This document shows, piece after piece, positions 38,626 through 63,066 of a stretch of DNA of 64,000 bases. Below the pieces are notes generated by a model. That model was not told the DNA's origin. It saw nothing but the letters and a program-made list of their open reading frames with translations, and made no database searches. Numbering within the stretch: position 1 is the stretch's first letter; each line of letters begins with the position of its first letter. The stretch is from a virus. Taxonomy: Duplodnaviria; Heunggongvirae; Uroviricota; Caudoviricetes. The stretch is from the IMG/VR virus record IMGVR_UViG_3300031740_000001; one strand, given 5' to 3'. The translations under genes and the position numbers were made by a program.

Positions 38626-40212
38626 TTGGCACGATCCCAGCTTGAAGCGTCGTCCATGGCCGGAAAGACCAGGGCGCAGATTTTCGCTGAGCGGGCCACC
38701 CCACCGGAGATGCGCTGGCGCAGGGATCCTGTCGCGTGGGCCGAGGAAAGGGCAGGGCTGGAGCTGTGGAGCAAGCAGAAAGAGATTCTTCGCTCATTGG
38801 TGGACAATCGGAACACAGCGGTCAAGAGCTGCCACAGTGCGGGGAAGAGCTTCATATCTTCCGTGGCTACGTGCTGGTGGCTGGACGTTCATTTGCCTGG
38901 TACAGCACGTGTGGTTACGACTGCGCCCACGTCGGCCCAGGTAGATGCCGTTTTGTGGTACGAGATCAACAAAATGCACCGAAAGCTGGGGCTGCAGGGT
39001 CAATGCAATCTTCGTGAGTGGTACATCGGATCTCAGCTGGTCGCGCTCGGCCGAAAGCCTCCGGACCACCAGCAAGCCGCTTTCCAGGGGCTGCACGCTG
39101 AGTTTCTGCTGGTCGTTTATGATGAGGCGTACGGAATCCCGCGTAATCTCTGGACAGAGGGCAGCTCACTGGCGTCAAACGCCAAGGCACGTCAGCTTGC
39201 AATCGGCAACCCGGACGGGCCAGGGGCATTTCAGGAGAACTGCGGCGATGGCGGATGGAATGTCATCCACATCAGCTACCGGAACACGCCCAACTTCACT
39301 GGTGAGACAATTTCGCTGGAGTTGTCCGACATGCTCATTCACCCGGATTGGGTTGATGAGCGGAGGAAAAAATGGGGCGAATCGAGCGCTCTCTTCGTCA
39401 GCAAGTGCGAAGGGGACTTCCCTGCTGTAGGTGGTGACCCCTGGCAAGTCATTCCGCGTGCGTGGCTGGACCAGTGCCTGTTTCTCGACTACCCAGCAGG
39501 TCAGCAGCCAATTGAGGCCGGAATTGACGTCGGCAAGACGCATGACCGGACCGTGGTTACGGTGCGCGAAGGCAAGAAAATCACTCATATCGAAACCTTC
39601 GTCAATCCCGACCCGATGCAGACGGTTGCCCAGCTCGCGAACGTTTTGCGTGATCATAACGTTCAAACCGCCAAGGTGGATAGCATCGGCATCGGGTGGG
39701 GCATCTACGGGCGCTTGCGCGAGCTGTCCAGCGTGGACAATACGACGTCAGCCTTCACCACGCACAGCGCGAATGTGGTGCCGATCAACGTCTCGCTTAG
39801 CCCGACCTACGGCAATGAGCACCTCTACTACAACCGGCGATCGGAAATGTGGTGGCTTGGCCGCGAACTGTCCCGCGTCAAGGCGTGGGACTTGTCCGCC
39901 TTGCCGATGGACCAGCAGACCGACTTGCTGCATGAGCTGACCATGGCGCGGTTTGAGATCGTGGACAGCCAGGGCAAGGTGAAGGTCGAGAGCAATGAGC
40001 TGATCATCAAGCGCCTCGGCAACTCACCCGACATCGCGACAGCCGCATTGCTGGCGTTCGTGCCTGCAAGCTGGGCTGGCGACACGTCTACGTCTACAAT
40101 GCTGGAGACGCCTTCCTTGATCGGGTCGTTCAGCGCGTTCGATGCGATGGTTCCGGCCAGTGGAGCGATGGGCGGGCTCGGCATCGGGGGGAGCAAGGCG
40201 TGGTACGAGTGA
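38626..40212 (+). CDS. terminase large subunit
   Basis: 528 aa. An N-terminal ATPase-like segment (VKSCHSAGKSF..., Walker-A-like, and LLVVYDEAYGIP, Walker-B-like) plus an acidic C-terminal nuclease-like region. It is located upstream of the portal and capsid module. The TTG start has a GGAGA Shine-Dalgarno. Confidence 0.65.
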   Translation: MARSQLEASSMAGKTRAQIFAERATPPEMRWRRDPVAWAEERAGLELWSKQKEILRSLVDNRNTAVKSCHSAGKSFISSVATCWWLDVHLPGTARVVTTAPTSAQVDAVLWYEINKMHRKLGLQGQCNLREWYIGSQLVALGRKPPDHQQAAFQGLHAEFLLVVYDEAYGIPRNLWTEGSSLASNAKARQLAIGNPDGPGAFQENCGDGGWNVIHISYRNTPNFTGETISLELSDMLIHPDWVDERRKKWGESSALFVSKCEGDFPAVGGDPWQVIPRAWLDQCLFLDYPAGQQPIEAGIDVGKTHDRTVVTVREGKKITHIETFVNPDPMQTVAQLANVLRDHNVQTAKVDSIGIGWGIYGRLRELSSVDNTTSAFTTHSANVVPINVSLSPTYGNEHLYYNRRSEMWWLGRELSRVKAWDLSALPMDQQTDLLHELTMARFEIVDSQGKVKVESNELIIKRLGNSPDIATAALLAFVPASWAGDTSTSTMLETPSLIGSFSAFDAMVPASGAMGGLGIGGSKAWYE

Positions 40213-43103: not shown

Positions 43104-43137
43104 CCGCTCATCCCGAAAACGGGGTGGGCGGTTTTTC
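43104..43137 (+). terminator. rho-independent terminator
   Basis: CCGCTCATCCC-GAAAAC-GGGGTGGGCGG, followed by TTTTTCTG. Confidence 0.55.
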
Positions 43138-43162
43138 TGTCTTCATATCGTATGATCCTCGC

Positions 43163-43567
43163 ATGTCGTACGAGAGCTTCAGTCTGGGCCAGCTGATTCT
43201 CATTACCGTGTTTTATTTCGGTGCCGTGCACCGGGTGACACGGCTATGGACGCGGGACGGCCTACCGCTTATTAAGGTCCCGCGTGAAGCGTTTATCCAG
43301 CGTTGGGGCGTTTACGATGACGACGAAGATAAGTCGACATCGATAAACGGAAAAAACACTAACATCGTCATGTCGAGTCTGGCCTACCTCTGGGAATGTG
43401 ATTGGTGCAGCTCGGTTTGGGTCGCCGCTGGGCTGGGATGGCTTACGTGGACGTGGCCTCACGTCATGTTCTGGCTGCTCGCGGGACTTTTCGCATCGTC
43501 CCTCACCGGTACGTGGGCGATCGCAGAAAAACTCATCACCGTAATGACGAAAAAGCACGAGGAGTAA
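43163..43567 (+). CDS. membrane protein (3-4 TM)
   Basis: MSYESFSLGQLILITVFYFGAV... and WVAAGLGWLTWTWPHVMFWLLAGLFASSL. Confidence 0.5.
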   Translation: MSYESFSLGQLILITVFYFGAVHRVTRLWTRDGLPLIKVPREAFIQRWGVYDDDEDKSTSINGKNTNIVMSSLAYLWECDWCSSVWVAAGLGWLTWTWPHVMFWLLAGLFASSLTGTWAIAEKLITVMTKKHEE

Positions 43568-43570
43568 GCC

Positions 43571-45184
43571 GTGGATCGTGCAGTAGCGCGTCGTCGCCCT
43601 AAGACTTTGCTTCAGGGCGAAATCATGCTGCCCGATCACGTGAAGGAAGACTTGCTTACCGCATCCGCGCAGATGCTGGGCGGCTCAGCGCGCGAGCAGT
43701 ATGCGGTCCAGTACAGGACCTGGCAGGACGAGCTTTGGGCTTATTCGCGCGCCGTAGGCGAGTATAGCAACGTCATGAACTGGTACGCCTCGGGAATCAG
43801 CCGGATGCACCTGGTTGCGGCGCTGGTGCGCCCTGGCCAACGTGAGCCTGAGATCATCGAAGACGAAGAGGATCCGGCCGTTCAGCTGGTCCACCGACTG
43901 GTAACGCACGCGAAGAACGGTGAAACGCAGTACCTCTACAAATGGGGTCGCCAGCTCGGGATTCCGGGCGTTGGTTTCTTTCTTGGTTATGAAGATGAGC
44001 GTAGCGGCGCAGAGATTTTCGACGTCAAAAGCGCAAAACAGATCCGCCGCTCTACTATTCCGTTCAAAGACGCCGGTGGCGTGATGCGCGACCAGTACGG
44101 CGAGGTGCTGACCGGATACGACCTGCGCACAGGCCCGCTGGAGTGGATGAAACTTCCCTTCAACCAGCTGGTAAGCCGGATTTTCCAACCAGACGACGAA
44201 TTGGATTATGAAGTTACGAGTTGGTCTCGCGGTGCGCTCACCACGCTACGTGAAATCGACTTGATGAACCGGCACATCGTGGCGACGTTGCTATCTCGTC
44301 TCGTATTTAACGGCATACTCTTCATCCCTCAAGAGGTCACGTTTCCGGTTAATCCCCAGTTCAAGGACGCGCCGGACCCATTCATCGCCGAGCTGATTGC
44401 CATCGCTTCGCGCGGCATCAAGGACCCCGGCAGTCCTGCTAGCGCTGTCCCGGTCCCCCTGCGTGTCCCCGCTGAATTCATTGACAAGTTCGTTCACTTG
44501 ATCCTCGCTAACGGTGTGGACCCCAAGCTGGTTGAAGCCCGCCAAGCAGCCATCACCAACCTATCGCAGATGCTCCCGAGCCCGCCAGAAGCGCTCAAGG
44601 GCAAGAGCGACATGAACCACTGGAACGCGTGGAAGGACTCCGAAGACAACGTCAAGATGTACTTCGGGCCGACCATGGAGATCCTGTGCGGCGGCCACAA
44701 CGACGCGTATCTGTGGCCGATGCTCAAGGCCGCTGGCGAGAAGATCGACGTTGATGGTGCACGCCGGGTGGTGTGGTACGACCCGAGTGACCTCGTTGTT
44801 CAGCCAGATAACTCCGCGAATGCCGAATTGCTGCACGCTGCCGGTGGAATCGATGATGACACTTGGCGCGAAGCGATGGGCTTTAGCATGGAAAACAAGC
44901 CTACTAAAAAGGAGAAGCGGGAGATCATTCTCACCCGCTTGGCGGTTCAGGGTCTGCCCACTCCTGATTCCTTCTACCTGCTGTATCCCGAAGACAAGCC
45001 AGATCCGATGGACACGGCTGTCGAAGGCGCAGAAGCGCAGGCAGAAGCGAACAAGATCCTCATAAACTCGATGCCGGAAGGTGCTGTCGCTGGCCCGTCC
45101 GCAACTTCCGGCATCGCTAAATCTGGTATGCCAGCTCAACCCGCGCGCGGGCCAGAGCGTAAGCCTATTGCCGCGGGGGGTTAA
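43571..45184 (+). CDS. portal protein (putative)
   Basis: 537 aa. It lies downstream of the large terminase and upstream of the MuF-like gene. The acidic composition and size fit a portal. No motif-level proof. Confidence 0.55.
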   Translation: MDRAVARRRPKTLLQGEIMLPDHVKEDLLTASAQMLGGSAREQYAVQYRTWQDELWAYSRAVGEYSNVMNWYASGISRMHLVAALVRPGQREPEIIEDEEDPAVQLVHRLVTHAKNGETQYLYKWGRQLGIPGVGFFLGYEDERSGAEIFDVKSAKQIRRSTIPFKDAGGVMRDQYGEVLTGYDLRTGPLEWMKLPFNQLVSRIFQPDDELDYEVTSWSRGALTTLREIDLMNRHIVATLLSRLVFNGILFIPQEVTFPVNPQFKDAPDPFIAELIAIASRGIKDPGSPASAVPVPLRVPAEFIDKFVHLILANGVDPKLVEARQAAITNLSQMLPSPPEALKGKSDMNHWNAWKDSEDNVKMYFGPTMEILCGGHNDAYLWPMLKAAGEKIDVDGARRVVWYDPSDLVVQPDNSANAELLHAAGGIDDDTWREAMGFSMENKPTKKEKREIILTRLAVQGLPTPDSFYLLYPEDKPDPMDTAVEGAEAQAEANKILINSMPEGAVAGPSATSGIAKSGMPAQPARGPERKPIAAGG

Positions 45185-45186
45185 CG

Positions 45187-46992
45187 ATGCGCACTGCCCG
45201 AACGCTGCGTCCGTGGAGTCTGGAAGCTTTGATTCAGCGGGAGAAGACCTTTGACGGTCTGATCGAAAAAGCCGTCAAGATGACGTTGCGTCCGCTGGCG
45301 ATGAACGTTGACGGGCTGCTGACTGCTGCTGTGGAAGCGGAGATGAGCCTGTCCTCTTCGCTAGCCGCAACGATGATTGGCCCTACGGTCAGCATGGATA
45401 GCGCTGGTGCATTGTCTGTGACCTGGGATCGATTCGTCGATGGTGAACTGCTGCCATTTCTCGCGGATACGTTTATGCATGGTGTGGTACAGGCTCATGT
45501 GGGTCTTCCAGCTGACACACCGATTGTCGCTGACTTCATTGCCCAGGATTACCTACTGACTGCGGCTAATAACCTGAAGAACATTGGTGATCTCGTCTGG
45601 ATGGCGATTCAGGCCGAACTTCAGGAAGGCGTCAATGCCGGAGAGGACATGCGGCAGCTCGCTGGAAGGGTCCGTGCGGCCTCTCAGGTGACCGCTGGGC
45701 GTGCAATGACGATTGCCCGTACCGAAGTGCACCGTGCGGCAGAAGCGGGCTCTCTGACGCAAATGAGGCTGTCCGGCTTTACCAACTTCGAATGCCAGAA
45801 GCGCTGGCTTGCGACCGAAGACGAGCGCACCAGACTTTGGCACATCCAGGCTGATGGCCAGACGGTGGGCCTGAACGAGGTCTTCGACGTAGGCGGGGAA
45901 GGGTTGCAGTTTCCTGGCGATCCGCACGGACGTGCGGATAACGTCATCAACTGCCGATGCACTATGGAGTATCTTTTCCCGGATGATGACGAGGACGACG
46001 CTCTGACCAGCTCTGGAGCGCCTAGCCAGATTACCTATGCGTTTTGGACCGAAGAGGACGAGCAGGCGCACCCGCGCGATCGTGCGGGTCGCTTCCGGCG
46101 CAAGGACGAGCACGTTGGCAAGGTGCTCAAGGACATCGAAGAGAAGGTGTCTGTTGCGTCCGAGCCTGAGATTTCGCTTCGGGACATCTTGCCGCTGGTC
46201 AACAAGGACACGATCAAACCCCCAAAGATTCCCGATGACATTGTCGATCAGCTGCATAGTGTATTCACCGGTACTTTTGGTGGATTTCGGGCAGAGGTGT
46301 CGAACGTCGAATGGGGCAAGGGCAATCATCGGATGATGGTGTCTGGCAACATTCTCAATGCTAAGGGCCAATCAGTCGGTAGTTTCGAGCGAGTTTTTAA
46401 GATCAACTATCAAGGTGTTTTCATGGTTGATCACACTGGTTTGTACATGGATCGAGACGTACAGGGCCAGGGGTTTGCTAAGGCGTTCAACAAGAATGCT
46501 TTCAAGAACTACAAGAAGATGGGCATCGAACGGGTACAGCTGCAGGCTGACATCGACGTAGGCGGCTACGCGTGGGCTCGCGAAGGGTATGACTGGGCAC
46601 CCGACGATGCTCCATCGCTTGCAGAAACTCTTTCTAGAATTGATGATGCCCGCGCGCCACAAATGACGGAACCTCCGCCAAGGACCCAAAAACAAATTGA
46701 TGATGTTTACTTCCCGATGTCACATCATCTTTATCGGATACCGGAAGAGCGTCGAGAAGAACAGGCCGCACTAGTTCGTAAGCTCTGGCTTGATGTTGGT
46801 GGCACAGTCGACATGGATACACCAGACGACGAAGTTCCTGACATCGTGGAAATGTGGCCGACCCCGTATGAGCTGAGTCAGCTCGGCCGCTGGGAAGGCG
46901 CTGGCAAAGATGACTGGTGGATCGGCAAGGCCATCATGATGGGCTCGAACTGGATCGGGGTGAGGTATCTTGACGATCTCGTTGACGCGTAG
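45187..46992 (+). CDS. MuF-like (SPP1 gp7 family) minor capsid protein with a ~340-aa C-terminal extension of unknown function
   Basis: Phage_Mu_F signatures are present: ...AMTIARTEVHRAAEAG... and the hallmark VINCRCTMEY (N-C-R-C). They end near residue 260. About 340 residues follow. Confidence 0.6.
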   Translation: MRTARTLRPWSLEALIQREKTFDGLIEKAVKMTLRPLAMNVDGLLTAAVEAEMSLSSSLAATMIGPTVSMDSAGALSVTWDRFVDGELLPFLADTFMHGVVQAHVGLPADTPIVADFIAQDYLLTAANNLKNIGDLVWMAIQAELQEGVNAGEDMRQLAGRVRAASQVTAGRAMTIARTEVHRAAEAGSLTQMRLSGFTNFECQKRWLATEDERTRLWHIQADGQTVGLNEVFDVGGEGLQFPGDPHGRADNVINCRCTMEYLFPDDDEDDALTSSGAPSQITYAFWTEEDEQAHPRDRAGRFRRKDEHVGKVLKDIEEKVSVASEPEISLRDILPLVNKDTIKPPKIPDDIVDQLHSVFTGTFGGFRAEVSNVEWGKGNHRMMVSGNILNAKGQSVGSFERVFKINYQGVFMVDHTGLYMDRDVQGQGFAKAFNKNAFKNYKKMGIERVQLQADIDVGGYAWAREGYDWAPDDAPSLAETLSRIDDARAPQMTEPPPRTQKQIDDVYFPMSHHLYRIPEERREEQAALVRKLWLDVGGTVDMDTPDDEVPDIVEMWPTPYELSQLGRWEGAGKDDWWIGKAIMMGSNWIGVRYLDDLVDA

Positions 46993-49900
46993 GCAGCGTT
47001 TGGCGGCTGTCGCCAAGGCTCACGACGCATGGGTTGAGCAGAATTTGTCTGCTGTAGCAGGTGAATTCGATCCTGCCGCGCACCCGAAGGACGGTTCGGA
47101 CTACAACCAGCACAATTTGGACGTTGACGCGACGGGTGGGATGGAAGACGAACTTGCGCAGCTGCTGGCGGGCGTATTTGACGACCCACTGACTGCCGCT
47201 GGGGATCCCGATTGGGATCCGTCCGAGCATCCGCGCGGCCCAGACGGCAAGTTCATTGAGAGCGTCGGCGCTGCTGACGCGGCAATAAAAGAGCTGGAGC
47301 AAGCTCAAGCAGTTGCTTCGCTGGCCAAGAGTGTTGCTTATCTTAAGGGTGAAAACTACAAGGCTCTTGAAATCCAAGCAGACTTGTTGAACATCCAGAA
47401 GGATATTGATACTTACGAGAAGGGGAAAAAGGCCCTCCTCAAAAAGGGGAAGACTGGCCCTAGCCCAGCTGGGGCTACTACCAAGGTCACGCCGAAAAAC
47501 CTTCAGGTGGGTCAGTACGTCAATAGTCAGAGCAGAGATTATCTCAAGGAGTCGCCCAAACAGATCAAATCGATTAGCAAAAAGGGCGATCATCACTATC
47601 TTCTTGATTTTGAAGATGGCTCCAACCTTTATGTGACGAATAACGAAAAGGTTGTTCTGCACTCGCAGCCTGCTGCGAAGGAACCTCTTACAGCGGTTAA
47701 AGCAGACGATCCGGATGTCAAAAATAAGGTCCTTATCGGTCTCCCAGATGGCCGTGGCGCGTATGTCGAGCGCGATGATCCTGCTGCGCCGAAGGTGCGC
47801 GACATCGAGACGGACGAAATTCTTTTCACCGGAAAGAATGACGCTGATCTTTATCAGCAAATGGCAGATCACTTTGGTGTTGAGCTGAAGTATACCGAAG
47901 ATCTCACCAGTAAGATGAAGATCTTTACGCCCAAGAAAAAGGGTGCAGCTAAGCCGATTACCGCTTGGACCAAGACGATCTTCAGTGGAAAATACGGAGA
48001 TGGTGAGGTAGTTGCTGTCAAGGATGATGGCAGCGCGCGGCTGACCTGGGACGAAGGCAGCAAAAAATTCCAGTGGGAAAAGAAGACTCCTGGCGGCTGG
48101 AAGCTCGCCGGGCTGCTCACCAAAAAGGACGCTTACGCGAAGTTCAAAGACGAGAAGACCAGCTGGCAGTATCCTGTGCCTGGCGCGGCAGTCACGGAGG
48201 ATGCACCACCTTCACCTTTGGAAAACTTGCAGTCGCATAGCCTTATCGATAGTGCAATAGCTAAAGGAGATTTCTCCCAGCTTAAGCAGATAGGTGGAAA
48301 CGCTGGCACGACACCAGGCGGCTTCTTTGAGGCACCAGACGGCTCACGCTGGTACGTGAAAGGACAGAAGACACAAGAACATGCTAATAATGAGGCTCTC
48401 GCTTCAGCTCTATACCGCGCAGCTGGCATCGATGTACCCGAAGTAATTCGGGGTAGTGGTACGCCAGGACTTCCAGGCACGGCGCATACGGCTACACGAA
48501 TAGTCGAAGGTGCGAATCAAAATCTGCCAGAAGCATTAAATGATCAAGATTATGTCGATAAGATACGAGAAGGATTCGCTCTTGATGCATGGCTTGCCAA
48601 CTGGGATGTCGTTGGTGAAGGCGATGAAAATCCTTGGGGCAATATTATTGAAGGATCAGACGGAAAGCCGCATCGAATTGATGTTGGCGGAGCATTACTT
48701 TTCCGTGGGCTAGGAACGTATAAAGGCTCAGCTTTCGGTAAAGAAGTTACTGAATTCGAGCGTATGCGTGATACCAGCAAGCCTTCACGCCATGTCAAAA
48801 TTTTCTCGGGCATGAGTCAAGAGCAGATTGACGCATCTGTTGCACGAGTTAAAGCGATTTCTCCTGATCAAATCCGGGAGCTTACATCAAAATATGGTAT
48901 GGATCCGGAACTCGCAGATCTTCTTATTGATCGTCGCGAAAACCTTATTATGAAGGTACCTGCTCCTGATCCCGTCAAAATTCCTGCGCCTACACCAGTT
49001 ATTTCTCCTACCTCTAGCGCAAAGAAGACTGTCTGGACCAAGGGTAAGTTCAACACGACACTTGCGTACAAGAGCAATTACCAACATCGTGAAATTGTTG
49101 GTATGACGGAATCTGCTGGAGAGACGAAACTTATCCTGTGGGAAAGCGGAAAGTTTCGTTCATACCGCCATGTCTTCGGCAGCGGATGGCAGTACGAAGG
49201 CACTTGGACGAGCAAGAAAGCTGCTCTTGAGGCGCTTAAAGATGCGCCACTTTATCGGCCCCCAGCGGGCACGATGGCGGACACGAACAAGGACTTCATT
49301 CATGCGGATCTCTTGAATCATGGCGGTCCGACCATTACGGCGACGGATAGCACTGATCTTTTTCAAGAGCTATACGACGCTGTTCCGCCCATAAGCACTG
49401 AAACTACCATAGTAGACGGTATCGGCATTATTAAGTCACTTGATGGTGACAAGGCAATTGCCTACAACAACGGCGGCGACAACCTAGGTGGCATTCACCA
49501 GAACTCAAAGGGTGAGTGGGTTGTTACCCCAAAGAATTACCTACATCCGTTTATGTCAACTAGCAAAACTTACGCATCGAAAGAAGCAGCGCTCAAGGCA
49601 CTTGTACAGGCAGATAACGCCTACATGGGCTCTATCGGAGCGCGTTCTGACGTTCCTGCCGCGCCTGCCGCGCCTGACATTGAAGAAATCCCGCTGACCA
49701 AGAAAATGCCGAAACTGACTGCTGCTCAAATCGAGAAGCAGAACGGCGCTATTCCGAAGAGCCTAAAACAGGCCCAGCGGACGGATTTCTTGAAAAACTT
49801 CAAGGAAAACAGTTCGGTCGGCTTTGTGCACTCTGGTGAAGACGATGCGCAAAAGGTCTTCACAGCAGTGGTGTACGCGGTAAAGAAGCACAACGCTACC

Positions 49901-50704
49901 GAGTCGCCAAAGCTGAACTACCTACAGGGCCTTAATCTTCTGGACAGCGTCTATGGGACAGGGCAAAAAGCTAGGGTCGTCAGCTGGCTTCAAACGAGTG
50001 AAGGTAAAGCACTCGCGCCTGTGCTCACTAGTGGGCTTGACAGCGGGCATGGGTTGGTCATTCCTGCCGACGCACACGTTGGTGTGCCTTCTCCATACTC
50101 CATCGGCAAGCCTAAAAAGGTAGCTCAAAATGCTTTCCAGAAAATGTCACTTGCAGACATGCTGGAAATGCACGAGAAGATGTACGCGAAAAAGCCCATG
50201 ACCTCCGGCCAACGGTCAAGAATTAGCCAGTACAAGGACGGTTCGAACGAATTTAACCAACCACTTCGCGGACACGCGTACTCACCTCTGGATGAGTACA
50301 GTCTTCCTAAAATTCAAGAGCTTCAGGAAGCTATGCGACCCGTGACACGTTCATTCGTCGTATTTCGGGGAACGGATGGTTTAGGTTCTGCCATTAATAA
50401 AGATACGATCAAAACTTTGGATGATTTGAAAAAATTCGAAGGATCAGTAATTGGTGATCCTGCGTTTCTTTCAACATCATTCGATCCAAATTCAGCCTTT
50501 ACAGGCAAAAAGTTCAAGTTGTTCATTAGTATTCCAGAGGGAACACCAGGAACTTTTGCATATGCAGCTGACAGCAGTTTCCACAACGAGAAAGAGTTCA
50601 CGTTAGCGGCTGGACTGCATTACCGCATCGATCGAGTAGAAGAAACACCTTATTCTGGGTTCAATGTCTACATGACAGTAGTACCGGAGGTGAAGAAGAA
50701 ATGA
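46970..50704 (+). CDS. 1244-aa virion-module protein with a C-terminal ADP-ribosyltransferase toxin-like domain (R / S-T-S / E-x-E)
   Basis: The last ~200 aa carry VVFRGTD (catalytic Arg), AFLSTSFD (STS motif) and FHNEKEFTLAAG (ExE in the ARTT loop), with spacing typical of C3/iota/Alt-type ARTs. A central domain has a kinase-like DAWLANWDVVG...IDVGGAL segment. The start overlaps the MuF gene by 23 nt. Confidence 0.6.
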   Translation: MTISLTRRQRLAAVAKAHDAWVEQNLSAVAGEFDPAAHPKDGSDYNQHNLDVDATGGMEDELAQLLAGVFDDPLTAAGDPDWDPSEHPRGPDGKFIESVGAADAAIKELEQAQAVASLAKSVAYLKGENYKALEIQADLLNIQKDIDTYEKGKKALLKKGKTGPSPAGATTKVTPKNLQVGQYVNSQSRDYLKESPKQIKSISKKGDHHYLLDFEDGSNLYVTNNEKVVLHSQPAAKEPLTAVKADDPDVKNKVLIGLPDGRGAYVERDDPAAPKVRDIETDEILFTGKNDADLYQQMADHFGVELKYTEDLTSKMKIFTPKKKGAAKPITAWTKTIFSGKYGDGEVVAVKDDGSARLTWDEGSKKFQWEKKTPGGWKLAGLLTKKDAYAKFKDEKTSWQYPVPGAAVTEDAPPSPLENLQSHSLIDSAIAKGDFSQLKQIGGNAGTTPGGFFEAPDGSRWYVKGQKTQEHANNEALASALYRAAGIDVPEVIRGSGTPGLPGTAHTATRIVEGANQNLPEALNDQDYVDKIREGFALDAWLANWDVVGEGDENPWGNIIEGSDGKPHRIDVGGALLFRGLGTYKGSAFGKEVTEFERMRDTSKPSRHVKIFSGMSQEQIDASVARVKAISPDQIRELTSKYGMDPELADLLIDRRENLIMKVPAPDPVKIPAPTPVISPTSSAKKTVWTKGKFNTTLAYKSNYQHREIVGMTESAGETKLILWESGKFRSYRHVFGSGWQYEGTWTSKKAALEALKDAPLYRPPAGTMADTNKDFIHADLLNHGGPTITATDSTDLFQELYDAVPPISTETTIVDGIGIIKSLDGDKAIAYNNGGDNLGGIHQNSKGEWVVTPKNYLHPFMSTSKTYASKEAALKALVQADNAYMGSIGARSDVPAAPAAPDIEEIPLTKKMPKLTAAQIEKQNGAIPKSLKQAQRTDFLKNFKENSSVGFVHSGEDDAQKVFTAVVYAVKKHNATESPKLNYLQGLNLLDSVYGTGQKARVVSWLQTSEGKALAPVLTSGLDSGHGLVIPADAHVGVPSPYSIGKPKKVAQNAFQKMSLADMLEMHEKMYAKKPMTSGQRSRISQYKDGSNEFNQPLRGHAYSPLDEYSLPKIQELQEAMRPVTRSFVVFRGTDGLGSAINKDTIKTLDDLKKFEGSVIGDPAFLSTSFDPNSAFTGKKFKLFISIPEGTPGTFAYAADSSFHNEKEFTLAAGLHYRIDRVEETPYSGFNVYMTVVPEVKKK

Positions 50705-52950
50705 GTGGATTCAGTAGTGATCCTAGCTTCTACGTCGTCTCCGGCCATGGCGCTGACCAGGGGTTTACCGAAGATGAAGCGTACGCGCTGCTCGCTGGTC
50801 TTGATGACACCAGCTCCACAGCCGTCATGCCGATGGTTGCTGCCGTGGATTCGGACGGGGAAGAGCACACGGGTGCGATGGTCGCGCTGGTGCCTACGGA
50901 TGCGGATATCGAGCGGCTGCTAGTCGAGGATGGGGAACCAGCTGATCAATTGCACCTCACGCTTATGTTTCTCGGTGAAGCGGCGGACATTTCCGAGAAC
51001 AGCCGTGCACAGATCATCGCTGCTGTGGAGCGTTATGCCGATGCTCAGCTGAGCGCGAATGGCTTCAGCGTCAACGTTTTCAACCCGATGGCGAGCAACT
51101 CGTGCATCGTGATGGGCGTTGGCAACGACGACGGAAGCCTGCAAGAGCTGCAGATGAACGTCGCGTCATCGCTGCGCGGGCTCGCTGGTCTGATGATCCC
51201 AGACCAGCACACTCCTTGGGTTCCGCATGTCACGTTGGCGTACACGGATGAGTTTGGCAAGGTAGAAGAGCTGGGTACGCGTACTGGACCCATCACTTTC
51301 GACAAGATTCGCGTTGCCTTCGGCGGCGAAGTACACGACATCCCGCTAGGAGGGACGATGACGGCATCTATTGAGGAGTTCGCAGAACGCGACGTTAACG
51401 CCCCCGGCGGAGGGCATGATCTACGTAATTACTGGACTAAAGGCGAGGGCGCAGCCAAGATCGGATGGGGTACGGACGGATCTTTCGCGCGCTGCGTGGC
51501 GCAGCTCGGGAAACACGTTCGTGACCCGCAAGGCCTGTGCGCGGAATATCATCATGCTGCGACAGGCGAATGGCCTGCGGAAAAAGGCGTGAAGAGCGGC
51601 GGCACCATGACGGAGTTCACGACTGAGGGTGTCATCCTCACAGCAGCTCAAGCAGCGAAGCAGGCGGAAGATGAGCCGTGGGAGGGTGTGCTCACCGTCG
51701 AGGGCGAAGAGTCCGGAGACGGGCGTCTCTTCGGCCATGGCTCCTTGGACTGGGCCGAACTGCCAATGCCCCTTATGTACCAGCCTGCGAGTGTGGGCGG
51801 CCATGACGCAAGCGTTCTCGCGGGTGCGATAACTTTTGCCGCGCGCAAGGGCAGCCAGATCTTTGGCCGTGGTCACGTCTTCGGCAACATGCTGGACAGC
51901 GAGCACGGTGACGGAATTCGCAACATGATGTCAACAGGCGGCGTTTCCGTTGATGTGGACAAGGTCAAGGATGTGGACGTGGAGATGGTCTTCGCCGATG
52001 GTGAAGCTGGGCTCATGTCCAAGCCTGAACTGACCGTGTTCCACCGTGGCCGGATCCGTGGCGCGACGCTGGTTGCCTTCCCGGCATTCGTGGAAGCCAA
52101 ACTTGCCTTCACCAATGAGGCGATGCTGACTGCTGCAGCTGGCGAAAGTTGTGACTGTTCAATGGGCGGGGATTCGTACGTTCTGAACGCCGCTAGCCAC
52201 ACGATCACCATTCCGGATGTTCCCCCGGCGGAGTGGTTTCAAGAGCCGACCGACGTGCAGGCAAAGGGCGCGCTGACCATCACGGACGAAGGCCGCGTGT
52301 TCGGCTGGCTGGCACCAGCGGGCGTCACCCATCGTTCGGTCCGTAAGACCGTACCTATGGGCGCGAACGTGGATTACAGCCGCTTCATGAAGAGCGAAAC
52401 CATTGTCGCTGGCGGTGGGCGCGTGGTGTCTGGAGTCATCACGGGCAATTGCGGTCACGCGGACACGGAGAACTACGGCACGCTAGCGAATCGGAAAAAG
52501 CATTATGATGATTCGTGTTCGGTCTTCGCGAATATTGCAGTTGGCCAGCGCCCTGGAAAAGGCGTCTGGGTCGCTGGTGCGCTCCGCCATGGCGTCACAG
52601 CAGAGCAGGTTGCGACGGCAATGGGATGCACGCTCTCAGGTGACTGGCAGCCACACCCGGACCGTCCTGGGGTGCAGGAGTTCATCGCGGCGTTGCTTGT
52701 ACCTGTGCCGGGATTTGCCATGGCTCGTACGCAGGCCTCGGTAACTACAGCATCGGCATCTGTCCTTTATCAAGATGGAGTTCTGACCGCTGCGGCGATT
52801 CCGGTCCAGTTCGGAGAGGCAATTCCGCGTAGCGAAATCGAAATTGCACAAGACATCATCACGGAGTACAAGGATCTGCTGCTGGCAAGCCTTGACCTCG
52901 ATCCTCAGAGCCGCAAAGATGCGGTTATGGCAGAACTAGAAATGGAGTAG
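50701..52950 (+). CDS. fusion protein: N-terminal 2H phosphoesterase (LigT/2',5'-RNA-ligase-like) domain plus a putative prohead protease/scaffold-like C-terminal region
   Basis: Two H-x-T-x motifs are present, LHLTLMFLGE and VPHVTLAYTD, about 100 aa apart as in LigT/CPDase. The downstream region has HD...VSVD segments that weakly resemble the S78 prohead protease. It lies between the ART gene and the major capsid gene with an ATGA overlap. Confidence 0.5.
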   Translation: MSGFSSDPSFYVVSGHGADQGFTEDEAYALLAGLDDTSSTAVMPMVAAVDSDGEEHTGAMVALVPTDADIERLLVEDGEPADQLHLTLMFLGEAADISENSRAQIIAAVERYADAQLSANGFSVNVFNPMASNSCIVMGVGNDDGSLQELQMNVASSLRGLAGLMIPDQHTPWVPHVTLAYTDEFGKVEELGTRTGPITFDKIRVAFGGEVHDIPLGGTMTASIEEFAERDVNAPGGGHDLRNYWTKGEGAAKIGWGTDGSFARCVAQLGKHVRDPQGLCAEYHHAATGEWPAEKGVKSGGTMTEFTTEGVILTAAQAAKQAEDEPWEGVLTVEGEESGDGRLFGHGSLDWAELPMPLMYQPASVGGHDASVLAGAITFAARKGSQIFGRGHVFGNMLDSEHGDGIRNMMSTGGVSVDVDKVKDVDVEMVFADGEAGLMSKPELTVFHRGRIRGATLVAFPAFVEAKLAFTNEAMLTAAAGESCDCSMGGDSYVLNAASHTITIPDVPPAEWFQEPTDVQAKGALTITDEGRVFGWLAPAGVTHRSVRKTVPMGANVDYSRFMKSETIVAGGGRVVSGVITGNCGHADTENYGTLANRKKHYDDSCSVFANIAVGQRPGKGVWVAGALRHGVTAEQVATAMGCTLSGDWQPHPDRPGVQEFIAALLVPVPGFAMARTQASVTTASASVLYQDGVLTAAAIPVQFGEAIPRSEIEIAQDIITEYKDLLLASLDLDPQSRKDAVMAELEME

Positions 52951-53231: not shown

Positions 53232-54923
53232 GTGTCTAAGGACGAAAAACTGAGTCTCCCAGAGGACATCACAACCCTCAGTGGAGCAGACCTTGATGCT
53301 TTCGTAGCGCAGGCTAGCGAGCGTGTGAAGCAGCTGCACAGCAGCGGCAGCACCGAATTCGCGCAGCAGACCGCCGAGGCAGACGAGATGGCCAGCTTGG
53401 CTGGCGACGTGCGCAAGGTGCGGCTTGAGAAGGCTCGCCGTAACGACCAATTCGCGAAGAACGACAGCGCGAAGGCCGATGCACAGGCGCTTCTGGATGA
53501 GCTGGCGGCTGAAGAGGCTGCAGCGGCCGAGGCCGTACAGGCTGAAGCACCGGCTGTGGAGACCGTTACCGCGTCAGCTCGGCCGCACGGTGGCGCGATC
53601 ACCAATCCCGTGCAGCGGGGCACTTTCAAGAACCCGAGTCTTGCCGATGCGCAGCAGACGGTAAAGCAGCAGCCTGCAGAGCGTCGTGAGAGCGTGCTTA
53701 CCGCTAGTGCTGACATTCCGGGCTTCGGCGCTGGCGTCAAGATGGACGGCATGGAGGACCTCACCCGCGCGTTGACCGCTCGGGCGAAAAGCCTCCCGAT
53801 CACGCACCGTGGCGACGACGCTCCGCGTTATCCGATTGCTTCGCTCAATCGCGAGTTCAAGTACTCGCTAGACATGCAGTCCACCCCGGAGCAGATCAAC
53901 GAGGTTCTCACGGCGGCGATGAACCCGGAGATCCTGATCGCGGCCGGTGGCTGGTGTTCGCCGAGTGAGATCTCTTACGACTTTTTCAACCTCGTCTGTG
54001 ATGACGGTGCGCTCGATCTCCCCACGGTTGGTATCAACCGGGGTGGTATCCGCTGGCCGATTTCGCCGAGCTTCGCAGATGTCACCAGCTCGACTGCACT
54101 ATGGTCCTGGACCGAGACTCAGGACATCGCGGCCGTCACCGGTACCGCTCAGTCAGGCACCAAGACCTGCGGCCGTGTGCCGTGTGTGACCTTCGACGAA
54201 GAGCGTCTGCACTGCGATGGTATCTGCCTCACGGTCGGTAACCTGACCGAGGACAGCTACCCGGAGTTGATCTCCAACTTCACGAAGCTGCTCTTCGCAG
54301 CCCACTTCCACAAGATGAACCGTGCACGGATCAACGAGCTGCGTACCTTGTCGGCTTCGTTCACCGTGACCAACGGCGACGCTGGTTCTGGTGTTGTGGC
54401 ACCGGTTCTCGGCGCGCTGGAGCTTCAGGCGATCGACTACCGCTCGCGTTATGCGATGTGCGAAAACGCTCTCCTTGAGGTTATTGCGCCCCGCTGGCTG
54501 CGTGGCGCAATGCGCTCTGACCTGCGCAAGCGTATGGGTTCCGGCACTGACATGCTCAGCGCCTCGGACGCCTACCTCATGCAGCTCTTCGATGCGATCA
54601 ACATCCGCATTCAGTGGGTTTCGGACTACCAGGAGCGGACTACCGGCTTCCCGGGTATGCCGAGCACGCTGATGACCGCGTGGCCGACCACGGTTGAGTT
54701 CATGATGATGGCTCCCGGCACTGCGGTGCTTGGCCAGGGTCTTCGCCTGGACTTGGGTATCATCCGCGACTCTGTCCTCAACGCCACGAACGACCACACG
54801 GCGGAGTGGATGGAAGAGTGCTGGTTGATCTTCAACCCGGGCCACGAGATCCGGCGTCTGACTGTCAACATCTGCCCGGACGGCACGACCGGCGCGGCCG
54901 ACCTGACCGCGTGCGGCGTCTAA
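53232..54923 (+). CDS. major capsid protein (HK97-fold) with an N-terminal scaffolding-like delta domain
   Basis: 563 aa. The N-terminal ~150 aa form an A/E/Q-rich coiled coil. The remainder has a capsid-like composition. It sits after the protease-like gene. Confidence 0.65.
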   Translation: MSKDEKLSLPEDITTLSGADLDAFVAQASERVKQLHSSGSTEFAQQTAEADEMASLAGDVRKVRLEKARRNDQFAKNDSAKADAQALLDELAAEEAAAAEAVQAEAPAVETVTASARPHGGAITNPVQRGTFKNPSLADAQQTVKQQPAERRESVLTASADIPGFGAGVKMDGMEDLTRALTARAKSLPITHRGDDAPRYPIASLNREFKYSLDMQSTPEQINEVLTAAMNPEILIAAGGWCSPSEISYDFFNLVCDDGALDLPTVGINRGGIRWPISPSFADVTSSTALWSWTETQDIAAVTGTAQSGTKTCGRVPCVTFDEERLHCDGICLTVGNLTEDSYPELISNFTKLLFAAHFHKMNRARINELRTLSASFTVTNGDAGSGVVAPVLGALELQAIDYRSRYAMCENALLEVIAPRWLRGAMRSDLRKRMGSGTDMLSASDAYLMQLFDAINIRIQWVSDYQERTTGFPGMPSTLMTAWPTTVEFMMMAPGTAVLGQGLRLDLGIIRDSVLNATNDHTAEWMEECWLIFNPGHEIRRLTVNICPDGTTGAADLTACGV

Positions 54924-57339: not shown

Positions 57340-59037
57340 GTGGCGGGTACGTTCCTCTTCAACAACGGTAACGCTGGTCATCTTTGCGATATGGGTGTCG
57401 CTCCAGCTGTGGGCGAAACCACTGTTTTGTGCATCAACTCTGATACCGTCGTTACAGCGGTAACTTCGTCAGCTGGTGCTGCTTGGGTGTTGGCTGAGTC
57501 TTCAGTGGCTGCTCAAGGCTCATATATCTATTATCGTAAAGCAACTGGTGGCGAGCCCAGTACCTTTACCGTGACGACAACCGGTAATTTCAACACTCAC
57601 GTCGGCTGGAGTGGCTGGCCCAGTCTCAATGCACTGGACACGTCTACCAACACACAAGCATCCAGCGCAAATGTCATTACCCCCATACACTCCACTGGTG
57701 TGATGGCCGAAAACACTGAGCTAGTCATTGCCTTCGGTGCGCTGCATGCAATTGGTATTGCAGATCAAAACACTCCTATCTGGTCCACCGGTTTTACTGA
57801 GCTGACCTCTTCGGCTGCTCAGGGTACCGGTGGCTCTGGCGTGCGCGGGTATGTCGGTTACAAGCAGAACGCTGGCACAGCAGCAGAAGCACCACGGGTT
57901 CAGTGGTCCGGCGACAACGTCACCGACCGATACATGCTCACCGTGTCATTCACGACGATCGGTGCCAACGTCAACGTTCCGGCGAGCAACGCCGCTGGAA
58001 CCGGAACCGCAAGCAACCCGAAAATGGCCGTCAGCCCCTCTGTGGGCGTAGATCTCGGTACAGGGGTAGCCAACCCTGCATCTATACTCATTAGCCCGTC
58101 TGTGGGCGTCTCAGCGGGCTCTGGGGCTGCCCTAGACGCTAGTACTACCATTGCCACGTCAGGCGTTGGAACCGCCGCTGGAATCGGGGCAGCGCCTAAC
58201 CCCTCGATTTCTATCGAAATGGGGGGAGATGTGCATCTCTACAAGTTTGGGCCGTGCGAGCCCTGGGATCCGATCTGGACATGCAATATCTCACTGATTA
58301 CCGGTGCGGCCGAGGTCACCGGGGTAGCGGTACAAGCAGCGTCCGAGATACTTTATCAGCTTAGTGCACAACGTTTCGGACTGTGCTCTGTCCAGCTGCG
58401 GCCCTGCCGGAAGTCCTGCCAGAGCAGCTTCCCGTGGTACAGCTGGTGGCAGTACGGCACCTATCCGCAGCCTTACTGGTGGAACGGCACCTGGTACAAC
58501 CTAGCCTGCAATAGCTGCCCGGAGAACAGCTGCTCTTGTATCGGCCTGGCCGAGACTGAGCTTCCCGGACCAGTGCACAGCATCGTGGAAGTCAAGCTGA
58601 ACGGTGAAGTCCTGGTTGAAGGCGTGGACTACCGCGTGGACGACTACCGGAAGCTGGTGCGTCTCGGCGGGGACCAATGGCCTTATTGCCAGGACATGCG
58701 GCTGGCGGACACCGAAGATAACACCTGGTCAGTAACGGCTGAGTACGGCGAAGTGGTGCCGACCATCGGCCGGATGGCTGTGGGTGAGCTGGCGCTGGAA
58801 TTCGTCAAGTACCTGTTGTGCGATGACAACTGCCAATTCCCTTACGGAGTTGTCGACATCTCGCGGCAGGGCGTTTCCATGTCCATCCAGAGCATCGCTG
58901 ACCTGATCAAGACCGGTATGCTCAATTTGCGGATGTGCGACATGTTCATTATGGCGACCAATCCGCAGCACATGACCGCGCGTGCAGCCGTATATGACCT
59001 GGATGCGCCTACGTATCGGGCGGTGGGTACGACATGA
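57340..59037 (+). CDS. large structural protein with a Cys-rich C-terminal domain
   Basis: 565 aa. An internal imperfect repeat reads SPSVGVDLGTGVANPASILISPSVGVSAGSGAAL. The C-terminus has at least 14 Cys. Confidence 0.45.
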   Translation: MAGTFLFNNGNAGHLCDMGVAPAVGETTVLCINSDTVVTAVTSSAGAAWVLAESSVAAQGSYIYYRKATGGEPSTFTVTTTGNFNTHVGWSGWPSLNALDTSTNTQASSANVITPIHSTGVMAENTELVIAFGALHAIGIADQNTPIWSTGFTELTSSAAQGTGGSGVRGYVGYKQNAGTAAEAPRVQWSGDNVTDRYMLTVSFTTIGANVNVPASNAAGTGTASNPKMAVSPSVGVDLGTGVANPASILISPSVGVSAGSGAALDASTTIATSGVGTAAGIGAAPNPSISIEMGGDVHLYKFGPCEPWDPIWTCNISLITGAAEVTGVAVQAASEILYQLSAQRFGLCSVQLRPCRKSCQSSFPWYSWWQYGTYPQPYWWNGTWYNLACNSCPENSCSCIGLAETELPGPVHSIVEVKLNGEVLVEGVDYRVDDYRKLVRLGGDQWPYCQDMRLADTEDNTWSVTAEYGEVVPTIGRMAVGELALEFVKYLLCDDNCQFPYGVVDISRQGVSMSIQSIADLIKTGMLNLRMCDMFIMATNPQHMTARAAVYDLDAPTYRAVGTT

Positions 59038-60807: not shown

Positions 60808-63066
60808 ATGACGCATCCGATTGACACTGCGTATGTGGACATTGTGCTCGTCGATAAATCGCTGGAAAAGCTGCAGCGTGACATCGACAAGGCAATGAAA
60901 CAGATGGAAAAAGATGCTGAAAAGGATCTTAAAAAGCTTGACAAAGATTTCGATGACGCGTTTGCTGAAATCGATAAGCATTTTGCAGACATGGAGAAAA
61001 CTGCCGAAAAAACTTGGCGCGAACAAGAACATATTGCTCGAAGCGCTTTTGACAATATCAAGCATAAATTTGAGGAAACTTCGCATTTCTTCCGTAACAT
61101 CTTCACGGGTTTTGGTGACGATTCAGACAGATCATTTAGGCGGATCCGTCAGCGATTTCTTGAGCCTCTAGTAGACGGCCTACAAAAAGCAGGATTGACG
61201 TTAGCGGATCTCGGCCGATCTATGGTGCAGCTGGTATCTGGTGTGGGTGGGGCGATTGGTTCCAACCCTCTGGCTGCTCTTATCATCATTCTGATCCCGC
61301 CGATCATTGCGCTTGCTGGTGCACTGAGTCAGCTCATCGGCCTGGTCGCCTTGTTACCAGCGGGCCTTAGCGTTCTGCTCGCGGCGATTTTGCCAGTAGT
61401 TGTCGCCTTCCAAGGGTTTGGAGAAGCAGTAAGCGCACTAGCGAGCGGCGATATCGATAAGATTAATGAAGCGCTCAAAAAGCTCTCACCTTCTGCCGCG
61501 TCTGTCGCGCGAGAAGTGGCGGCTCTGCTGCCTATGCTGAAATCATTTCAGCGAGTAGTGCAAGAAGCCTTCTTTTCCCAGGTCAAGGGTGACTTTACTA
61601 ATGTGGTCCGGACCCTTTTCCCTCTTATGGAGAAGGGTTTTGTTACGGTCGCTTCAGCAGTAGGCAAACTGGTTTCCAGTTTTGCCGACCTGCTGACCAA
61701 AGCAAGCTCTTTGCAGACTTTTCGAGAAATATTCGCGACGACTGGCCGAATCATTGAAAAGCTGACTCCATCCTTCGTAAAGTTTGCAGACATGCTGCTG
61801 GGTACAGTCCACGCTGCGCTGCCGTTTATCGAACGCATTGCAGTGGCCTTCGGCAAGGCACTTGACACGTTTAGCGCATTCGTCAATAAATCGATGGAAA
61901 CCGGGGATTTCAACCAATTCATTGAAGATGCAATTACTACTGTCAAGGAACTGATTGACCTAGGCAAGGCACTCGGGAAAGTGCTTGGCACTCTTTTCGC
62001 TGGCACTGAGGAATCCGGCCATGGACTGATAAAGACGCTTACGGACGTTTTGCTCAAACTTGATGCATTCTTGAAGACTGCTGAAGGACAAGATGCCATC
62101 AAATTACTAGTTATATCCGTCGAGGCGTTCGGTATTGCACTTTTCGCGACTCTCCAGACTCTCATCTTCTTCTGGCGCGTCTTCGAAAATACGCTGACTT
62201 TTCTGGAAAAAGTCGGTCGCGGATTCATCAGCTTTGTCACCACGATCGGCGAATGGCTAGGCAAAATCCCTGGCTTCATTACGGAGTTCATTAGCGGAAT
62301 TCCTGAAATGGTGGCAGGATTTTTCCAGTCAATGATTGATCGCGCACTTCAAGTCATCGGTATCGGTATCGGTCTCATTCTCTTTGCCGTATTCGAGTTG
62401 CCGAAGCAAATTATTAGCGCGATTGAGAATCTACCAGAGCAAATTTACAACGCGCTGGTAACTATTGGTCCTCTTGTTGTTGGAATCTTCAGCGATGCCT
62501 TGACGGCAGCCAAAAACTTTGTGGTTAACGGGTTCAATGAAATCATGGATTTCATTACCTCTGTGCCCGATCGGATCAAGAGCCTTATCCCGAGCTTCGG
62601 AAATGCTGGCCATAACCTGATCGAGTCGTTCATGAACGGATTCCGGTCTGTAGGCAGCTTTATCGGCGATATTGCGGGCGATATCGTCAACTCCGTGAAG
62701 GGATTCTTGAACAAGGCGATCGACAAGATCAACTCAGGCATAGCGATGGTTGACAACATCTTGCCTGGTGATCTAGGCCGTATTCCACGGCTAGCAGAAG
62801 GCGCGCTGATCCGTGCGCGTCCAGGCGGCATCCTCGCTAACGTTGGTGAAGGTAATGAAGATGAAGTTGTCGCGCCGTTGTCCAAGCTCGAAGGCTTGTT
62901 AGGCGGTGGGCCGACAATCACGTTTGGCCCTGGTTCGGTGAGCGTGAACTTCTCCGGGGTGGTGCCAACGATGGAGGAAGCGCGGCAAGTGGGTACCGCC
63001 GTGGGCGAAGGCATCGTAAACTTGATCAGCAGGCGGAACACTCGCGCGCAGGTGAGGGCGATCTGA
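60808..63066 (+). CDS. tape measure protein
   Basis: 752 aa. It has an N-terminal K/D/E-rich coiled coil, multiple central hydrophobic TM-like segments and a Gly-rich C-terminus. It is in the canonical position after the chaperone. Confidence 0.65.
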   Translation: MTHPIDTAYVDIVLVDKSLEKLQRDIDKAMKQMEKDAEKDLKKLDKDFDDAFAEIDKHFADMEKTAEKTWREQEHIARSAFDNIKHKFEETSHFFRNIFTGFGDDSDRSFRRIRQRFLEPLVDGLQKAGLTLADLGRSMVQLVSGVGGAIGSNPLAALIIILIPPIIALAGALSQLIGLVALLPAGLSVLLAAILPVVVAFQGFGEAVSALASGDIDKINEALKKLSPSAASVAREVAALLPMLKSFQRVVQEAFFSQVKGDFTNVVRTLFPLMEKGFVTVASAVGKLVSSFADLLTKASSLQTFREIFATTGRIIEKLTPSFVKFADMLLGTVHAALPFIERIAVAFGKALDTFSAFVNKSMETGDFNQFIEDAITTVKELIDLGKALGKVLGTLFAGTEESGHGLIKTLTDVLLKLDAFLKTAEGQDAIKLLVISVEAFGIALFATLQTLIFFWRVFENTLTFLEKVGRGFISFVTTIGEWLGKIPGFITEFISGIPEMVAGFFQSMIDRALQVIGIGIGLILFAVFELPKQIISAIENLPEQIYNALVTIGPLVVGIFSDALTAAKNFVVNGFNEIMDFITSVPDRIKSLIPSFGNAGHNLIESFMNGFRSVGSFIGDIAGDIVNSVKGFLNKAIDKINSGIAMVDNILPGDLGRIPRLAEGALIRARPGGILANVGEGNEDEVVAPLSKLEGLLGGGPTITFGPGSVSVNFSGVVPTMEEARQVGTAVGEGIVNLISRRNTRAQVRAI

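Follow-up and report, generated by a model that had tools for sequence, protein, structure and literature searches.

The stretch of DNA analysed here, 64,000 nucleotides of the IMG/VR virus record IMGVR_UViG_3300031740_000001 (Caudoviricetes; hereafter the window), carries between the genes of a MuF-like minor head protein and a capsid maturation protease a gene for a multidomain protein of 1244 amino acids (aa). Judging from sequence and predicted structure, its C-terminal ~175 aa are an R-S-E mono-ADP-ribosyltransferase (ART) of the Vip2/iota/C3/Alt family with intact motif residues, and its centre is occupied by a domain of protein-kinase fold. We consider it probable on balance that the product of this gene, referred to below as the ART protein, serves a siphovirus-like actinophage as a MuF-associated “polyvalent” effector that travels in the head and is co-ejected with the DNA. 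Packaging and ejection are inferred from the gene context and from the fusions to MuF and portal domains that are found in relatives, and the enzymatic activity is a predicted one.

Assignment of the C-terminal domain was based on concordant family, sequence and fold searches. Pfam family PF03496 (ADPrib_exo_Tox) matched aa 1072-1225 with 61.8 bits (gathering cut-off 23.4) and E 7.2e-17, and the PHROGs match of the protein was phrog_3895, “ADP-ribosyltransferase exoenzyme toxin”. Among PDB sequences, phmmer retrieved Vip2 (2.6e-8), iota Ia and CDTa, whose R, STS and ExE motifs fall in register; the catalytic residues of Vip2 are aligned opposite R1133, STS, ExE and F1204, the aromatic residue of the ADP-ribosylating toxin turn-turn (ARTT) loop. 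In an alignment of 11 family members showing 37-61% identity, R1133, T1169, E1207 and E1209 were invariant, and S1168 and S1170 were conserved in at least 90% of sequences. The gene and the elements of its ART domain are located as follows.

46970..50704, plus strand: whole gene, multidomain (polyvalent) head-module protein of 1244 aa (open reading frame and translation)
50180..50701, plus strand: ADP-ribosyltransferase domain, R-S-E type, aa 1071-1244 (PF03496; sequence of Vip2, iota and CDTa; Foldseek against the PDB)
50366..50368, plus strand: codon of the catalytic arginine R1133, aligned to the Vip2 arginine and invariant in 11 sequences
50471..50479, plus strand: codons of S1168-T1169-S1170, aligned to the STS of Vip2
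50588..50596, plus strand: codons of E1207-K1208-E1209 (ExE, ARTT loop; F1204 three residues upstream), aligned to F-A-S-E-K-E of Vip2

The fold of the domain was consistent with this assignment. An AlphaFold2 model of aa 683-1244 had a mean predicted local distance difference test score (pLDDT) of 72.6, with most blocks of the ART domain between 70 and 92, and Foldseek comparison of the model with the PDB retrieved CDTa (E 1e-10), Plx2A, Vip2 and C3bot, all with probability 1.00. Among single-domain chains, TMt values reported by Foldseek over ~200 residues were 0.73 for Plx2A and 0.70-0.73 for C3bot. A preliminary description of the gene, made by a model from the sequence alone, had recognised VVFRGTD, FLSTSFD and NEKEFTLAAG as the ordered signatures of a C3/iota/Alt-type ART and had proposed the Foldseek comparison as a check. 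All three motifs are present in that order (from aa 1130, with R1133, from aa 1166 and from aa 1206), and the proposed identity was borne out by the Pfam score, the Vip2 register, the intact R, STS and ExE and the structural matches. It had further placed the ART in the C-terminal ~200 residues; the ART itself was confirmed, but the domain is the shorter segment of ~175 aa (1071-1244), preceded by a helical region (aa 901-1070), the last ~30 residues of which fall within the part that matches ART structures.

ExE is the motif of arginine-specific transfer, as in iota, Vip2 and T4 Alt, and QxE that of asparagine-specific transfer, as in C3. Since the motif of the ART protein is ExE and not QxE, arginine is, by analogy, the likely acceptor residue. 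A tblastn search with the pre-ART and ART region (49670-50701) gave no match at E ≤ 0.01 in 50,697 deposited phage genomes, so this ART lineage has so far been seen only in metagenomes; megablast of the ART gene against the same 50,697 genomes found none either.

The central domain, aa 418-672, was modelled with high confidence (pLDDT 90.3) and showed a bilobal kinase fold. Positions K464, E475, N544-W545-D546, N558 and D571-x-G573-G574 were invariant in 16 diverse members, and they sit on the secondary-structure elements expected for the Lys, the Glu, the catalytic loop and the metal-binding Asp. The pattern LDxxxxNxD...N resembles what we take to be the catalytic loop of PI4K-II. The domain was compared with solved kinases by fold, and the putative roles of individual residues were assigned from column conservation. 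On these grounds aa 418-672 are a structurally supported, predicted HipA/PI4K-II/CtkA-like protein-kinase-fold domain. The preliminary description had already read kinase-like features from DAWLANWDVVG and IDVGG, which are present at aa 539 and aa 570, and the modelled fold together with the invariant K, E, D, N and D-x-GG columns agrees with it.

Sequence profiles were less informative for this domain. Its Pfam matches remained below the thresholds for kinases (HipA_C with E 0.069 and 13.2 bits vs 30.5; HipA_2 with E 0.3), and significance for HipA_C was reached only by multi-copy relatives. A profile of the domain had a sole match among PDB sequences, to a repeat motif of an S-layer protein, which was spurious; because this search was uninformative, comparison of folds was needed to place the domain. 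The kinase that Iyer et al. 2017 described for polyvalent proteins of Verrucomicrobia and Bacteroidetes prophages (PMC5512222) was considered as a candidate for the central domain and rejected, as its missing C-lobe and its H..D motif do not fit.

The family defined by this domain is large and absent from Pfam: 4289 representatives of 50%-identity clusters were collected at E ≤ 1e-3, mostly proteins of 600-7000 aa. When 29 sampled members of the family were scanned with Pfam, PF03496 was detected in 20, MuF in nine, 2H in six and NUDIX in five. With an iterative local hidden Markov model, an ART was present in 109 of the 141 best representatives, a sample biased to close relatives of the query; an ART was C-terminal of the kinase-like domain in 104 of these 109, and an ART lay at the very C-terminus in 92. 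Text searches of PMC5512222 and PMC9503650 turned up no pairing of ARTs with a HipA/PI4K-like kinase.

The remaining parts of the ART protein are arranged around these two domains.

46970..47269, plus strand: conserved N-terminal region, aa 1-100 (phmmer to the N-termini of homologues P0002-P0011, E 1e-18 to 1e-49)
47213..47254, plus strand: motif W-x3-EHPRGPDGKF, aa 82-95 (regular-expression scan)
47270..47944, plus strand: variable, weakly conserved region, aa 101-325 (partial, weak matches to homologues)
47945..48214, plus strand: small beta-rich repeat 1 (“WTK” domain), aa 326-415, conserved in P0002-P0011 and matching the second copy
48221..48985, plus strand: protein-kinase-like domain, aa 418-672 (conserved residues as given above)
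49016..49294, plus strand: small beta-rich repeat 2 (“WTK” domain), aa 683-775 (beta-sheet model, pLDDT ~63-83 per ten-residue block)
49295..49669, plus strand: middle region, aa 776-900, a third small beta domain with low-confidence linkers (phmmer mapping and model)
49670..50179, plus strand: helical pre-ART region, aa 901-1070 (PKLTAAQIEKQNG...SPKLN.LQ), conserved in P0002-P0011, E 1e-22 to 1e-78

The pre-ART region has many invariant alignment columns and is helical in the model. Neither aa 1-100 nor aa 101-325 had a Pfam match; the former is a candidate for targeting to the head or docking there. When six sub-segments of the protein were scanned with Pfam at E ≤ 10, only sub-threshold hits to HipA_C, aRib and CEP192 appeared, none of them credible, and no matching family was found in NCBIfam.

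The open reading frame (ORF) at 46970-50704 consists of 1244 uninterrupted codons and starts with TTG. We regard its coordinates as right because a Shine-Dalgarno-like site, GGGGTGAGG, precedes the TTG, an in-frame TGA lies three codons 5' of it, and the close homologues likewise begin with MTISLARRQ; the database copy of the same protein (P0001) has its start called 10 codons shorter. The gene shares 23 nt with the MuF ORF upstream, and its stop overlaps the start of the 2H-protease gene downstream as ATGA. These overlaps imply co-expression, and the ART gene is a late-module gene, presumably so in its timing, translationally coupled to both neighbours. A programmed frameshift fusing the MuF and ART ORFs was considered and rejected, as no slippery heptamer occurs within the 23 shared nucleotides and the TGA three codons 5' of the TTG closes the ART frame. 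Across the ART gene (46000-50000) the G+C content was 50-53%, vs 55-60% in the flanking head genes, which fits a cassette acquired elsewhere or a lysine-rich composition.

Genes of the head module follow one another in the order terminase, portal, MuF, ART gene, 2H-protease, major capsid protein, head-tail adaptor and tape measure.

38626-40212: terminase
43571..45184, plus strand: portal protein gene (phrog_776, E 1.8e-79)
45187..46992, plus strand: MuF-like minor head protein of 601 aa, which carries an HPR..GRF motif and an additional domain, possibly GNAT-like, at its C-terminus (PF04233, 58.9 bits; phrog_2468)
50701..52950, plus strand: 2H phosphoesterase fused to capsid maturation protease, 749 aa (PF13563, TIGR02258; HLT and HVT motifs)
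53232..54923, plus strand: major capsid protein gene (phrog_777, E 8.6e-122)
60808-63066: tape measure

The order portal-MuF-ART-2H-protease-capsid is the one expected from the preliminary description, which had located the 1244-aa protein between MuF and the capsid genes and attributed it to a siphovirus-like actinophage. Both attributes hold: the phage is siphovirus-like, as a tape-measure gene is present, and the affinities of its capsid protein and protease are almost only with actinophages. By tblastn, the major capsid protein matched capsid proteins in 877 phage records, and the C-terminal 476 aa encoded by 50701-52950 matched genes in 844 records, mostly annotated as capsid maturation protease; nearly all of the hosts were actinobacterial in either case. 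In this fusion protein the N-terminal 2H (LigT-like) phosphoesterase has both of its H-x-T motifs intact, and it would likely be another enzyme carried into the procapsid.

The pair of MuF and ART genes appears to be conserved in at least 7-10 related uncultured phages, since homologues of the two proteins were found on contigs of matching lengths. Direct fusion with ART, NUDIX or 2H domains was seen in other MuF homologues. In the window the MuF protein itself has ~300 extra C-terminal residues (aa ~300-601; 46090-46992), which include “VQGQGFAKAF”, similar to the acetyl-CoA motif of GNAT, and two distant MuF homologues were named GNAT acetyltransferase by the Joint Genome Institute (JGI). 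We did not adopt the GNAT identity, for which Pfam and PDB searches gave nothing and the two JGI names are the support; these ~300 residues might add one more enzyme to the cargo.

When its segments were mapped one by one with phmmer onto 26 homologues, the ART protein proved to be modular, with a variable central slot. This slot, filled by the kinase-like domain in the window protein, holds NUDIX in P0008 and P0011, kinase and NUDIX in P0004-P0007, and a second ART in P0010. The latter protein (1025 aa) thus has two ARTs, the one in the central slot replacing the kinase-like domain, and the STS of its C-terminal ART is degenerate (A-T-G), which suggests functional replacement within the cassette system. 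Further combinations in more distant relatives were 2H, NUDIX, kinase and ART in P0014 and P0015, a peptidoglycan-binding domain with kinase and ART in P0013, and 2H, kinase and ART in P0016, which is part of a 10.5-Mb Dactylosporangium fulvum genome record and probably belongs to a prophage.

Some relatives connect these enzymes physically with head proteins. In P0017 a single polypeptide of 1887 aa contains MuF, 2H, NUDIX, kinase and ART; its gene stands directly after a 519-aa gene that is in portal position, by place only, and before a 700-aa gene. A Pfam portal domain (PF06381) is joined to NUDIX and the kinase-like domain in P0020, the ART-like C-terminus of which was read by eye and confirmed by neither Pfam nor phmmer mapping. 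The BFVD matches to the kinase domain likewise include a portal fusion and “head morphogenesis” proteins.

The kinase-like domain, the only part of the ART protein that finds isolates, was detected in 20 phage records by tblastn/genome search. In Gordonia phage Forza, MuF (gp75), portal (gp77), a kinase-like protein (gp78; 734 aa, its kinase-like domain 39% identical) and an ART protein (gp80; 1017 aa, PF03496) are encoded upstream of the major capsid gene, and in Actinomycetia phage DSL-LC01 a 3289-aa protein with the kinase-like domain is encoded between portal and protease. In gp117 of Pseudomonas phage Dolphis (1222 aa) an ART forms the C-terminus, after the kinase-like domain. Other phages of ~86-95 kb from Gram-negative hosts (Pseudomonas, Yersinia, Escherichia, Enterobacter, Aeromonas and Morganella) also carry the domain, and some of the genes concerned are annotated as ADP-ribosyltransferase. 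The BFVD search listed the kinase-like fold for an “ADP-ribosyltransferase” of Mycobacterium phage Onyinye too.

A short motif recurs across these proteins. The HPR motif of the N-terminal region of the ART protein is found as well in the MuF protein of the window (aa ~295-303; 46069-46095), and its general form, W-x3-(E)HPRxxxG(K/R)F, occurred 47 times in 167 proteins with the kinase-like domain, vs 0.15 in shuffled sequences. It is typically present once per protein, at residue ~260-320, where by analogy with the MuF protein of the window it probably follows the MuF domain; in P0020 it is found three times, at apparent domain junctions. The motif could mark where cargo begins and serve as a signal for docking to the head or for processing by the protease. 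A text search of the MuF-toxin paper PMC5576092 did not yield it.

Association with the head is argued from the portal-MuF-ART-protease-capsid gene order, the ORF overlaps and the MuF and portal fusions of relatives. The proposed course of events is the following. The ART protein would be made together with the head proteins and enter the procapsid near the portal via its N-terminal 100 residues, with their EHPRGPDGKF, and/or via the MuF protein; it would perhaps be trimmed at its Pro/Ala-rich linkers by the neighbouring capsid protease, and it would leave the head with the DNA. After entry into a new host, NAD+ would be consumed by the ART for mono-ADP-ribosylation of host proteins, probably on arginine, and ATP by the kinase-like domain for modification of these or further host targets, resulting in host takeover or inactivation of defences before phage genes are expressed. 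Degradation of nucleotide or ADP-ribose-derived signals, as part of the same payload, would fall to the neighbouring 2H domain and, in relatives, to the NUDIX domains. RNA polymerase and a defence component, named in the preliminary description as possible targets of the injected effector, are guesses.

Several points weigh against this reading. It has no MuF domain of its own (only PF03496 was found), pairwise similarity to T4 Alt was not detectable (BLASTP E 1.4), and a protein of 1244 aa would have to cross a siphovirus tail unfolded or after processing. Confidence in the ART model is only moderate (the mean pLDDT of 72.6 refers to aa 683-1244), its target residue and substrates are suggested by analogy alone, and the catalytic residues of the kinase-like domain were assigned from column conservation and from the catalytic-loop pattern of PI4K-II.

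T4 ModA and ModB act without being injected, and the ART protein could similarly be a late-expressed, non-packaged enzyme that acts only in the producing cell, where late in infection it would ADP-ribosylate or phosphorylate proteins of host or phage, e.g. in host shutdown or regulation of assembly. We judge this unlikely. The enzyme identities would fit it equally well, the protein is devoid of its own MuF or portal domain, and no head module is evident around gp117 of Dolphis, which combines both domains; against it speak the tight embedding and translational coupling of the gene between MuF and protease, the repeated fusion of MuF or portal to the same domains in relatives, and the swapping of cassettes, which is typical of delivered effectors. 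We give very little probability to a mainly structural role, as a scaffold or ejection-conduit protein whose beta repeats and linkers would form a body inside the head or close to the portal, or else a channel through the actinobacterial envelope, and whose enzyme domains would be accessory or decayed. About 60% of the protein (the N-terminal, WTK, middle and pre-ART regions) is indeed without an enzymatic signature, and the gene position matches that of internal or ejection proteins of other phages. However, conservation is lowest in the non-enzymatic parts, whereas at the catalytic positions of both enzyme domains even divergent relatives show little or no variation, a sign of selection on activity.

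It is also quite improbable, in our estimation, that the protein is a MuF-type polymorphic toxin or a Bxa-like factor, released by lysis or delivered by particles into competing bacteria or other cells, to the advantage of the lysogen and not in aid of the infection. The C-terminal ART of a toxin family, the variable cassettes and the adjoining MuF do resemble the toxins of PMC5576092 and the prophage ART Bxa (PMC11699363), and P0016, in the Dactylosporangium fulvum record, probably comes from a prophage. Yet the ART polypeptide has no MuF domain, PF04233 being encoded by the separate upstream ORF, and no small ORF lies between the ART gene and the 749-aa 2H-protease gene; as the ART stop overlaps the ATG of the latter, there is no room for an immunity gene. 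Moreover, the fusion partners of the family are enzymes related to infection (NUDIX, 2H, kinase) and not a single toxin tip, and no integrase was found among the 20 further window ORFs, a part of the total, that were scanned with PHROGs. We keep to the reading of the ART protein as a head-packaged, DNA-co-ejected effector, which is the best supported.

The frequency of the kinase-ART pairing (109 of 141 representatives, with the ART C-terminal in 104) led us to a bolder and rather doubtful proposal, namely that the two domains may form an obligate two-enzyme module and not independent cargo domains. Delivery of such a module from phage heads would extend over Actinobacteria, Proteobacteria and haloarchaeal viruses, with EHPRxxxGKF as the shared head-docking or processing signal. 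In Legionella the kinase-fold protein SidJ controls the SidE ART, and by analogy one possible coupling is that the kinase-fold domain activates or restrains the ART; another would be phosphorylation followed by ADP-ribosylation of one host target.

Further features of the window are more distant from the ART gene. In the 565-aa ORF at 57340-59037 only aa 323-558 match the head-tail adaptor phrog_783, and the N-terminal ~320 residues may represent one more fused domain. Two genes near the left end, 191-1033 and 2912-3994, encode nucleotide-sugar epimerase-like and glycosyltransferase-like proteins by PHROG matches, which may serve in modification of DNA or cell-surface sugars. A small DUF1360 (PF07098) gene was seen directly upstream of the portal-position gene in L004 (6051-6425) and L005 (977-1381), and the window ORF 43124-43567 stands at the equivalent place.

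The effector class to which we assign the ART protein is already described computationally, and similar large ART genes are annotated in the capsid modules of Gordonia phages; the literature searched held no experimental characterisation of ART proteins of the Forza/Onyinye type. The present locus is a clear case from a siphovirus-like actinophage, with intact catalytic motifs and with MuF and portal fusions in relatives, and its cultured relatives in Gordonia and Mycobacterium phages offer a test of packaging, targets and an anti-defence role. A useful by-product is the large kinase-fold family, absent from Pfam and mostly travelling with an ART; the kinase-ART pairing and the HPR motif provide handles on how phages load and deploy enzymatic payloads.

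Among toxins, the solved structures and sequences closest to the ART domain are those of Vip2, iota Ia, CDTa, C3bot and Plx2A, at ~20-24% identity. These proteins are secreted and act on eukaryotic actin or Rho, whereas the ART of the window has neither a B-component nor a secretion-signal context. The polymorphic MuF toxins (Jamet et al. 2017) have an N-terminal MuF and a downstream immunity gene, and the window protein has neither. The kinase-like domain is only 9-16% identical to CtkA (from the integrative and conjugative element of H. pylori), CotH, PI4K type II, MavQ and HipA, and unlike these, which are without an ART, it usually has one after it.

T4 Alt is the injected phage ART that surveys cite, few others having been studied experimentally. 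As the preliminary description had proposed, the comparison with Alt holds at the level of the Pfam family, Alt matching PF03496 with 124 bits vs 61.8 for the window protein. Both have an R-S-E site, the ART at the C-terminal end of a larger protein and late or virion-associated genes, and their mode of action would be alike, with ejection alongside the DNA followed by ADP-ribosylation of host proteins on arginine. Co-location with virion genes was found here as for Alt-type ARTs, the ART gene lying between MuF and protease/capsid with overlapping start and stop codons. Orthology with Alt was rejected, since the best BLASTP match of aa 1001-1244 (E 1.4) covered only the STS motif. Alt has 682 aa and no kinase-like domain, and it belongs to a myovirus, with its gene beside baseplate genes; the window protein has 1244 aa and belongs to a siphovirus-like actinophage, with its gene between MuF and capsid protease. 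For Alt, packaging and activity have been proven; for the window protein they are predicted.

In Forza, with the arrangement of MuF, portal, kinase-like and ART genes described above, the kinase-like domain and the ART reside on separate proteins (gp78 and gp80), whereas the window protein has both; the divergence between the ART domains of the two phages is beyond the reach of tblastn. Iyer et al. 2017 (PMC5512222) defined both polyvalent proteins and effectors fused to MuF, and MuF proteins are head components fused to effectors (PMC5512222, PMC9503650). Fusions of Alt/VIP2 ARTs, Nudix and 2H to MuF, portal or capsid peptidase were reported by Iyer et al. 2022, with ~44% of phage ARTs in head-packaging contexts and an ART encoded by only ~3% of siphoviruses (PMC9503650); the surveys predict head-packaged ARTs to be common. 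The window differs from these MuF-linked effectors in having MuF as a separate gene, and its HipA/PI4K-II/CtkA-like domain, which is the least-described feature of the protein, is unlike the polyvalent-protein kinase of 2017. Polyvalent proteins likewise combine at least two unrelated enzyme domains in one phage polypeptide, in a virion-gene context and with cassettes swapped among relatives, and here a kinase-fold domain and an ART were found together in one protein of 1244 aa, with a variable central slot across the 26 homologues.

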